From Haplodiscus bocki (Eukaryota), in contig OZ296648.1 of the NCBI GenBank assembly GCA_965655095.1, positions 83,762,001 through 83,826,000 of the forward strand: a stretch of DNA of 64,000 nt. The letters run 5' to 3'. The translations under genes and the position numbers were made by a program. Shown here in pieces: positions 35,814-37,795 of the stretch. The notes under the pieces were generated by a model. It saw only the letters and a list, made by a program, of their open reading frames with translations, was not told where the DNA came from and did not search any database. Every line of letters begins with the position of its first letter. The stretch's first letter is position 1.

Positions 35814-37098
35814 GTTTACTTTACTAATTCAATTCCACTTGATATTGCAACATTAACAAAAACATAAGAACTTGATGGTATTAAAAGTACCAAATTGTTA
35901 GTAACTCTGAAAATATTAAAGACAATAATAGTTTGAATGAACGTTTTGCAGACTGTTTTTCAGGTTGACGATTATTCTTCTGGCGATGATTTTTCCTTTA
36001 GGATTGCCCCCTCTTTCCTCATCTTCGCTGTCCAATTGGGTAGCTCGCTTTTTTGACGTCATGCTCTCGGGTTTTATTTATATCAAAGCATCAAAGGGGT
36101 TTAGCCCGAATTACATATTTCATCAGTATGACATCACTTTTAAAAATAGTAATATAAACAACATCAAAGAGGTTTAACCCGAAATATATATTTCATCATC
36201 GTGACATCATTTTTTAGAAATAGTAATAAGATTAACTTCAAAGGATAAATACCGCAAAACCATGACCACCAAAAATATGGTCATGGAAACTGGATAAATG
36301 TTCAGGGATAATAAAGTCATGTTTACATGCTTATTTCAAATAATAGGTGGTTAATAGTAGTCATAGTACACCAAATATGGCAAGAAAAATAATATTAAGC
36401 TTCATGCGCAAGTTTTAACTTTAGGTTAATATATAGTGGTCAAAAGTGGGAACTATGACCATCTTTTGACCAGGTAATATTTTTCACTCAGGATTTATTA
36501 ATAATTAGCACTACATAATTTTATATCACATAATCACATAATTATATGTTTATATAAGTAAATAGCAACATTTTCCAATTATATCTATTCATACATTGGC
36601 TTTCTGATTACATTTGGCCGTATTTCGCCTTTTGTTTGAAAGCGACCACTTGCATTGAGCAAAGTGGTCAAAATCAGGTCCTAGTGACCAGTTTTGACCA
36701 TGTTACAGCAGCGCTTTTGGTTGGTCAGCATTTGATACGCTTGCTTATCCTTGACCAACCAAATTTGAGTATAAGACTGCAGATAAGTTGAGTACTGTAA
36801 ACATTTGTCTATGAACTTCCCTTCATGATACAAACTTCTTCGCCATTTGTATGGATTTTGCACATAAATACATAAATATTCGTAAGATCATATATGTATT
36901 TAAATATATTAATATATAAATATATATAAAATATAACTTCAAAAGGGGGGGGGGAGGATATTTATCCGGCGATTTATTAAACAATAGTTCTATTATATCA
37001 GTTTTCAAGTAAGGGCAGAGCATAGCCTTGTGTGACTGAGTTCTGCCCATTGTAATTGACGGAGTAGATCATGCCGTCACAGGCGGCAGCCTGCGACA
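35249..37098 (-). repeat. 3' LTR (1850 bp)
   Basis: Near-identical to 49486-51306 with scattered SNPs and small indels. Minus-strand termini TGTCGCAGG...ACTCATCACA. Confidence 0.96.
36050..36090 (-). promoter_or_regulatory. Putative LTR TATA box / overlapping AATAAA and CRE-like TGACGTCA
   Basis: Minus strand GATATAAATAAAACCCGAGAGCATGACGTCA, ~250 bp upstream of the gag ATG. Confidence 0.4.
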
Positions 37099-37795
37099 AT
37101 CCCGGGGGGATAAAAGTGAAGACTCCGCTCTGAACGACATCGATGAATGCATTTCTCTTGATTTGTCGTTCCCTGACTGTCTCGCCCGGTTGCGCTGTCT
37201 GGTCAGGATAGTCGGCAACAGTCCCTTCGATGACTTGGTCGTAAGATTTGACGCATACTAAGCAACCTGTTACCCATTCATTGCGTTGTGGATGGGGGTG
37301 CAGTGTTAGGTTGTTCTATTCATCAGCTACTGCGATGATATTGGGGGGGTTGTTTAGTGGGATATTGTTGGGATAAAAATCGTCTAATTGCCCACGATTT
37401 TCTGGAGTCGGCGATTCCGGCGTTTCTGGGATAGTTGTCATTCGTTGGTGTAGTTGACGAGAAATAGGGTGGCGATTCGGTGTGTAGGGCAAGAATTGGG
37501 CAGGATTGCCTACTATTGGGGTGGTCATGTCATCATTTTCATGATCGGAGATCAACGAAGTTGGTGGGGTGATTGGATATTGTGGAACAGAGGTACCTGA
37601 CATTGACATTTAATCGTGCTGGGCTGCTAATAATTGTGGGATGGCGCTGTATCTGTCAGCTGTGTTGTTTGGCAGCTGCGGGATTAGTGATGGGTGAAGT
37701 GAGTCTATTTCACTCTCATCACTTGAGAGATAAATCGGCTGCGTCTCCATCTCCTGGTCTTCACCAAAATTGAATTGAGAAATGATTTCAACCAT
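36998..37795 (-). pseudogene. Accessory sense ORF (~265 codons, 2 in-frame stops) overlapping U3 of the 3' LTR
   Basis: Single frame: MVEIISQF...AQHD*MSMSG...ADE*NNLTLHPHPQRNEWVTGCLVCVKSYDQVIE...VFTFIPPGLSQAAACDGMIYSVNYNGQNSVTQGYALPLLEN*. It ends 101 bp inside the LTR. Confidence 0.7.

Follow-up and report, generated by a model that had tools for sequence, protein, structure and literature searches.

The locus raises a simple question: does a reading frame that runs out of the internal region of an LTR retrotransposon and into the U3 of its 3′ LTR belong to a gene, and if so, to what kind of gene? The frame lies on the minus strand of a 64,000-nucleotide stretch of Haplodiscus bocki DNA (hereafter the window), and an earlier note, drawn from the letters only, had described it as a hidden nef/sag-like ORF. 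As that note stated, 37795 to 36998 is one frame with only two point stops; we count 265 codons and a stop, interrupted by TAA at codon 62 (37612-37610) and TAG at codon 160 (37318-37316), and call it ORF3. The Pro/Thr-rich N-half followed by a CxxC motif was recovered too, the former being acidic and rich in Pro, Thr and Ser, the C-half carrying WVTGCLVCVKSY. The 3′ LTR starts at 37098, the second base of codon 233, so that 32 whole codons and 2 nt of ORF3 are LTR-coded and its stop sits 100 nt inside U3. This boundary is marked independently by varied flanks there in contigs and is backed by the target-site duplication CCCTG, which confirms the LTR-encoded end of the ORF. The frame is a decayed copy of a sense ORF3 of about 265 aa that belongs to a Ty3/gypsy family numbering thousands of copies, and by position it is a U3-overlapping accessory gene, a selected frame that extends into the 3′ LTR.

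The host element is 16 kb long and lies on the minus strand between LTRs (51306-49486 and 37098-35249) that are 95.6% identical, with CCCTG as a 5-bp target-site duplication on both flanks. Its LTRs are of the TG...CA type, a PBS follows the 5′ LTR, and the pol order PR-RT-RH-IN identifies it as a Ty3/gypsy LTR retrotransposon. Twelve elements were tried for the duplication; 7 had no LTR start in the fetched stretch and 1 was rearranged, and in the four further elements with both LTRs alignable it matched at 5/5 positions in three and 4/5 in one. Younger copies have LTR pairs that are 98.2-99.9% identical: the window copy is old, and activity of the family has been high in recent times. Across 20 copies compared with the window, pol is present in 19 and at least part of the 4.5-kb pol-ORF3 region in all. 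The gag gene begins with an ATG located 565-598 nt inside the LTR, about 570-600 nt of which are taken up by gag coding; since ORF3 ends within the LTR as well, both LTR ends are coding.

A gene on the opposite strand stands head-to-head with ORF3, with a 0.9-kb spacer in between; this arrangement suggests that a promoter inside the element works in both directions. It is under purifying selection (dN/dS 0.16-0.18 in 17 copies) and gives sub-threshold matches to zinc fingers of the BED/Spin-doc type; it is probably spliced. Promoter motifs shared between the spacer and L082, a distant homologue described below, did not rise above shuffles, 185 of 500 of which reach the score. Contigs of unrecorded kind from three runs gave even coverage, with no splice-type joint among the alignments listed.

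Several smaller features of the element deserve mention. The LTR-coded part of gag has a dN/dS of 0.19. The PBS inside gag comes in one to three tandem modules, each repeating the LTR end and PBS (49486-50053, 35249-35819). At about 43050-43070, just past the pol stop, an antisense A/G-rich tract resembles an inverted polypurine tract (PPT) in all 18 copies listed. The search for a primer tRNA in the host gave pattern matches near the control level (147 vs 110), and ARAGORN called none of 4 candidates. The window also contains a run of 200 N at 4146-4345.

Table 1 Features of the ORF3 element and of two gag-only LTRs in the window
Feature	Positions	Strand	Remark
Target-site duplication, 5′ side	51307..51311	.	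second copy 35244-35248
5′ LTR, 1821 bp	49486..51306	-	gag ATG at LTR position 1257
PBS-like TGG motif	49475..49485	-	directly after 5′ LTR, inside gag; repeated 72 nt further on
gag with CCHC knuckle	48270..50053	-	broken in window copy
pol, order PR-RT-RH-IN (Ty3/gypsy)	43091..48282	-	broken in window copy
Antisense gene	38722..42875	+	head-to-head with ORF3; two open blocks, 662 + 422 codons in less decayed copies
Non-coding spacer between divergent genes	37796..38721	.	candidate internal promoter by layout alone
ORF3	36998..37795	-	sense to gag-pol; window copy broken, stops at codons 62 and 160
Codons 17-30: hydrophobic core, Ser-Ser, acidic run (SIM-like)	37706..37747	-	dN/dS 0.02, dS 1.03
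C-run near codon 149-151	37343..37349	-	main frameshift source in ORF3 family
Codons 178-222: invariant CxxCG, then predicted helical hairpin	37130..37264	-	sole confidently folded part
Polypurine-tract position	37099..37121	-	pyrimidine-rich coding sequence; 4-5 purine run adjoining LTR
LTR 5′ terminus and imperfect palindrome coding SQAAACD	37075..37098	-	dS 0.07 vs 0.52 either side
3′ LTR, 1850 bp	35249..37098	-	last 32 ORF3 codons; ~190 gag codons at other end
Solo LTR, gag-only family	20128..21990	+	TSD GTGAC; without ORF3
LTR start, second gag-only family	63621..64000	+	cut by window end; without ORF3

ORF3 almost certainly encodes a selected accessory protein. A search with its C-terminal 105 aa brought up 3966 first-look candidates across the 1.5-Gb genome, and the 150 that were scored are all 84-100% identical over this segment. 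An unbiased sample of 29 copies was picked with a non-coding spacer query, independently of ORF3 protein score; 24 of these and the window copy make up the dN/dS set of 25 sequences, the other five being left out because they had large deletions or an N-half that could not be aligned. Pairwise comparison gives a dN/dS of 0.19 (0.14-0.26) over codons 1-135, 0.13 (0.09-0.19) over the Cys domain at codons 162-232 and 0.29 (0.14-0.48) over the LTR-coded tail at codons 242-264, compared with 0.76-1.71 in the +1/+2 frames and 0.63-0.86 in the non-coding spacer of the same copies. The antisense frame, with its common third positions, yields 0.28-0.34, as expected, and 12 disjoint pairs reproduce the same medians. 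The integrity and dN/dS test proposed for this locus thus shows purifying selection confined to the ORF3 frame. Codons 17-30, with a dN of 0.023, are under the strongest protein-level constraint measured (Table 1). Twenty elements that had been selected for long open ORF3 frames, with 17-20 usable per region, give a C-domain dN/dS of 0.09, next to 0.07 for RT and 0.08 for IN.

Individual copies are another matter. ORF3 is open from ATG to end in 7 of the 29 unbiased copies. Stops conserved across copies would have spoken against a gene, but each of the two window stops occurs in the window copy alone among 35 frame-continuous copies, and in 1/27 and 1/29 copies of a second sample. For frame-disrupting indels, also named as adverse evidence, the outcome is mixed: indels shared by lineages keep the frame (+21, -33 nt), whereas frameshifts are common, with 13 of the first 30 ORF3 loci shifted at the C-run. 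The length of this run varies from 4 to 17 among 58 copies and is 7 in 25 of them; its frameshifts look like slippage events of single copies and not like changes that replicating lineages tolerate. Replication slippage or assembly error may lie behind the variation. Counted against one reference, with events that are not independent and an aligner that splits some in-frame ORF events, indels are multiples of 3 in 24/230 cases in the spacer vs 63/155 in ORF3. Broken ORF3 copies accumulate freely after insertion, as the 7/29 open frames and 13/30 C-run shifts show. Many copies have ~70 extra open codons upstream of the ORF3 ATG, and two subfamilies, seen among loci L001-L030 and L091-L102, diverge strongly in codons 30-120 while having motif 17-30 and the C-domain in common.

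At the LTR boundary the SQAAACD codons are fixed at the DNA level too, by the LTR end and a hairpin: dS drops in codons 233-241 (Table 1), and the stretch is an imperfect palindrome with a 10-bp stem and a 4-nt loop (z -2.9 in the window and in L082). The LTR start is therefore in triple use, as LTR end, hairpin and codons, and the suggestion that the LTR terminus doubles as coding sequence is borne out, codons 233-241 combining a selected frame with DNA-level constraint. Among 78 LTR starts no base pair changed on both sides of the stem and the loop bases are conserved as well; a structure and a sequence-specific site are hence equally likely explanations. A compensatory swap is no more than suggested by an amino-acid proxy (V together with T in 5/8 cases, which are not phylogenetically independent). 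Because the terminus TG-TCG-CAG always reads xSQ, a shared xSQ at LTR starts simply follows from the terminus itself. In 258 of 259 proteins SQ follows V, L or M, as xTG codons would dictate, and these proteins end a median of 33 residues past SQ. The overlap as such would need no special function, U3 being copied from the 3′ end of the RNA; its cost would be a polypurine tract reduced to a few purines. By the 3′ LTR there is only a run of 4-5 purines, and no run of at least 11 was found nearby in the ORF3 family.

The earlier note had also read related frames at the LTR starts of two other families in the window (from 20130 and 63623) and took the overlapping gene for a clade feature. The short peptides exist, but they offer no evidence of such a feature. 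Five full elements per family match gag in 10/10 cases and show no match to pol, ORF3 or the antisense gene; the ORF3 profile finds nothing in 60 loci of the two families. At their 3′ junctions we see canonical purine tracts preceded by only 4-48 open codons (7/7 seen). Full-length members are thus gag-only, with normal PPTs and without a homologous ORF. A hairpin at their LTR starts is no better than in shuffles (z 0.16 and -0.57). The terminal 8-mer is common to these LTRs and those of the ORF3 family because the same integrase is likely used, and, as far as sequence can tell, the gag-only families are plausibly moved by the ORF3-family Pol. These families are abundant and non-autonomous, with 5.5-7 kb between LTR starts (including L193-L202). 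They match the ORF3 family in LTR terminus, PBS type and PPT end, and their gag, too, starts inside the LTR. The solo LTR at 20128 contains three tandem 108-bp units (20656-20979).

The clade of ORF3 itself is broad. Its profile returned 642 proteins, and a full HMMER search gave 260 cluster representatives at E<=0.001; in neither set is any of the matches listed named. The 103 full-length proteins (240-295 aa) form 13 clusters at 50% identity, with about 27-35% identity between clusters, and full-length open frames of 245-283 aa recur across all 13. Residues C, C, G, E, G, S, Q, A, C, D and G are invariant among 16 homologues at 27-35% identity. In L082, a homologue with 36% identity, the first 19 nt of the LTR are identical and fall at the same place in the frame; the contig ends 80 nt on. 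Three distant homologues (P0248, P0213 and P0244) had no match in the window's genome with the queries used, and two sister Pol families searched there returned only the ORF3 family, at 63-65%; these proteins therefore probably come from other hosts. Genomic context for distant homologues was obtained for 2 of 64 metagenome candidates and for none in viral or prokaryote contigs. The idea of a clade feature thus survives for the homologues, found in many lineages, but not for the two LTR families above; judging from one short contig and residue patterns, the overlap is likely ancestral to the ORF3 clade. Some sister Pol proteins from other assemblies (P0398, P0405) carry a dUTPase domain (PF00692).

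What kind of protein is it? AlphaFold folds only the CxxC and helical hairpin (codons about 178-222, pLDDT 80-96), the remainder, including the LTR-coded tail, staying below 50-65. The globular C-terminal end that had been expected is hence limited to about 45 residues, and the LTR-coded tail is low-confidence in both models. We found no Pfam match in 63 family members, no hit better than E 0.51 among PDB sequences searched with the ORF3 profile, none at E<=0.001 with Foldseek against PDB and viral structures, nothing above Z 4.3 (helical pairs) in a VIA-align fold search and no match in the ESM Atlas; piggyBac-labelled ESM Atlas clusters (0.86-0.88) were low-overlap leads and were not accepted. 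Nef/sag-like thus describes the position of ORF3, not its protein. Of 21 ORF3 proteins, none begins with the M-G of a myristoylation site or has a signal-like N-terminus, and none has a transmembrane segment, the 19-residue hydropathy maximum being 0.58-1.61 (1.17 here) and never N-terminal. For a Nef core, Pfam gave no match in the 63 members, and the fold searches, run on low-confidence models, were blank. Three invariant Cys and an Asp make a candidate zinc site, the third Cys lying in the DNA-constrained, low-confidence tail. The protein is net acidic, with 11-13 Lys/Arg in the window's family and no NLS-like basic cluster there.

One short motif of the disordered N-half persists across clusters: a hydrophobic core, Ser-Ser and an acidic run. 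A SUMO-interacting motif (SIM) is a hydrophobic core with flanking acidic residues and CK2-type Ser, and is loosely defined, according to the part of PMC12751080 drawn on here. By sequence, ORF3 has the hydrophobic core, the flanking Ser and acidic residues and the disordered context of a SIM-type motif. A SIM-core+SS pattern, defined after viewing the alignment, matches 9 of 13 cluster representatives where shuffles predict 0.11; four miss it, and the core of the window's family, P-I-Y-L, is non-canonical. SUMO is encoded in the host genome.

We tentatively propose, at somewhat less than an even chance, that this decayed accessory gene specified a soluble, mostly disordered nuclear regulator that binds SUMO and relieves silencing of the element. 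ORF3 would be expressed through a sub-genomic RNA; the simplest source of that RNA would be an internal promoter serving both ORF3 and the head-to-head antisense gene. The N-terminal hydrophobic-Ser-Ser-acidic motif would act as a phospho-regulated SIM and the CxxC-helix-hairpin as a zinc-stabilised interaction module. In Drosophila, piRNA-guided transposon silencing requires SUMO, as reported in the part of 10.1101/533091 drawn on here. The ORF3 protein may compete for, or dock on, SUMOylated chromatin repressors at element copies. DNA viruses reportedly deploy SIM proteins against such defences, HSV-1 ICP0 being an example. A SIM alone would not separate repression from anti-repression, and SQAAACD, part of the best-conserved motif, is accounted for by DNA constraint. 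A wider version is doubtful: an envelope-less 'complex' gypsy clade with both LTR ends coding, in which a SUMO-binding ORF3 and the antisense zinc-finger protein would form an anti-silencing pair hitting the SUMO step and serve gag-only passengers in trans.

Other functions fit parts of the same evidence. In a Tas/Tat-like transactivator, the acidic-hydrophobic N-terminus of the acidic, Ser/Pro-rich and disordered N-half could be the activation domain, and either ORF3 or its zinc-finger-like, head-to-head antisense partner would then act on the LTR or internal promoter, perhaps via the palindrome, whose conserved loop bases suit a protein-binding site; foamy-virus accessory genes have the same 3′ position and U3 overlap. 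We consider this rather unlikely. A fixed string of the I-x-L-S-S-D-E type is rare in activation domains, and here it is held at the lowest dN/dS of the gene; moreover, no DNA-binding fold was found in this net acidic protein with its 11-13 Lys/Arg in the window's family. The U3 hairpin would fall in the 3′ end of the RNA, as would suit a post-transcriptional regulator that, like Rev or CERV, enables unspliced genomic RNA to leave the nucleus or to enter particles, with the Cys-module serving oligomerisation. Gypsy elements offer a precedent in CERV of Cer1 (PMC10309623, in the part cited), but in that account CERV has 517 aa, is spliced from gag and has a G-protein-like domain, none of which was found in ORF3, and the window's family lacks an Arg-rich RNA-binding stretch, so that we hold such a role to be distinctly unlikely.

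The short purine run prompts a further reading, that of a particle-associated cofactor of reverse transcription or integration which would compensate, for example, for the near-absent polypurine tract or for a very long minus-strand strong stop: no purine run of at least 11 lies near the 3′ LTR, gag fills about 570-600 nt of the LTR, and gag-only relatives without ORF3 keep normal tracts. Yet the cost of the overlap suffices to explain the short tract, no enzyme or nucleic-acid-binding fold was found and the top-constrained segment is a short linear motif, which leaves this role improbable. A membrane protein of the Env or Sag kind that would serve spread between cells or modulate host immunity, attractive for a gene 3′ of pol that overlaps U3, is very improbable and largely refuted by the hydropathy of the 21 proteins and their acidic N-termini. 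Finally, the frame might stay open with no protein at all, through cis-acting DNA/RNA signals and recent amplification; the DNA-constrained codons 233-241 and the broken state of most copies are what one would then see, but outside these codons synonymous sites vary freely (dS 0.5-1.0), amino acids are conserved in the ORF3 frame only, and long open frames recur in 13 clusters. This codon pattern refutes the idea, to which we give next to no weight.

Lentiviral nef, MMTV sag and foamy-virus bet/tas are accessory genes that overlap U3. Like them, ORF3 is a sense accessory gene at the 3′ end that reads through the PPT region into U3, but it belongs to a Ty3/gypsy element without env, and the searches showed no similarity to them in sequence or fold. 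It has neither the myristoylation Gly of Nef nor the type II membrane anchor of Sag (the functions of both are treated in part of PMC12789967), and the PPT that nef, sag, bet and tas keep inside the ORF is nearly lost here. The plant LTR retrotransposons Athila, Bagy2, Grande, RIRE2 and Retand have sense and antisense aORFs (PMC7264820), and bdelloid rotifer elements have ORF3s between pol and the 3′ LTR (PMC5408684). As far as the cited parts of these papers go, the likeness lies in extra ORFs between pol and 3′ LTR, sense and antisense, present in most copies and conserved like gag and pol; the sense ORFs there are env-like/TM, esterase, exonuclease or coiled-coil, and none is described in those parts as entering the LTR or bearing a SIM-like motif. 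Here, in contrast, sense and antisense genes stand head-to-head within one element. CERV of C. elegans Cer1 is, in the cited part of PMC10309623, nuclear, phospho-regulated, Cys-finger-bearing and needed for export; like ORF3 it is an accessory protein of an animal gypsy element, is novel and prone to phosphorylation, and has a Cys motif. It shares exons with gag and has H/M/G domains, unlike ORF3, and no similarity was detected, none being expected from size and layout.

The proposed mode of action, a short SUMO-binding motif in a disordered parasite protein aimed at chromatin defence, would be analogous to that of ICP0 and VANC. VANC is a transposon anti-silencing protein of plant DNA transposons. 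ORF3 differs from ICP0 in having no RING or other ligase domain, and both its SUMO binding and its effect are putative. In the literature covered (most subscription journals, repeat databases and supplements being outside its scope), we found neither a gypsy ORF that enters U3 nor a retrotransposon accessory protein with a SIM, nor any account of the ORF3 family; an earlier annotation is possible.

The resistance of animal retrotransposons to silencing by small RNAs and chromatin is poorly understood, and, to our knowledge, few element-encoded counter-defence proteins have been recognised. The ORF3 family has no described relative that we know of, and its constraint is as tight as that on reverse transcriptase. 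The segment under the strongest constraint, the short SIM-like motif, is accessible to testing with synthetic peptides. The layout of nef, sag and bet arose independently in a Ty3/gypsy lineage, at the visible cost of polypurine tract loss, and TE pipelines that mask LTRs overlook genes of this kind. If our reading is true, the ORF3 protein may help the element escape host silencing.
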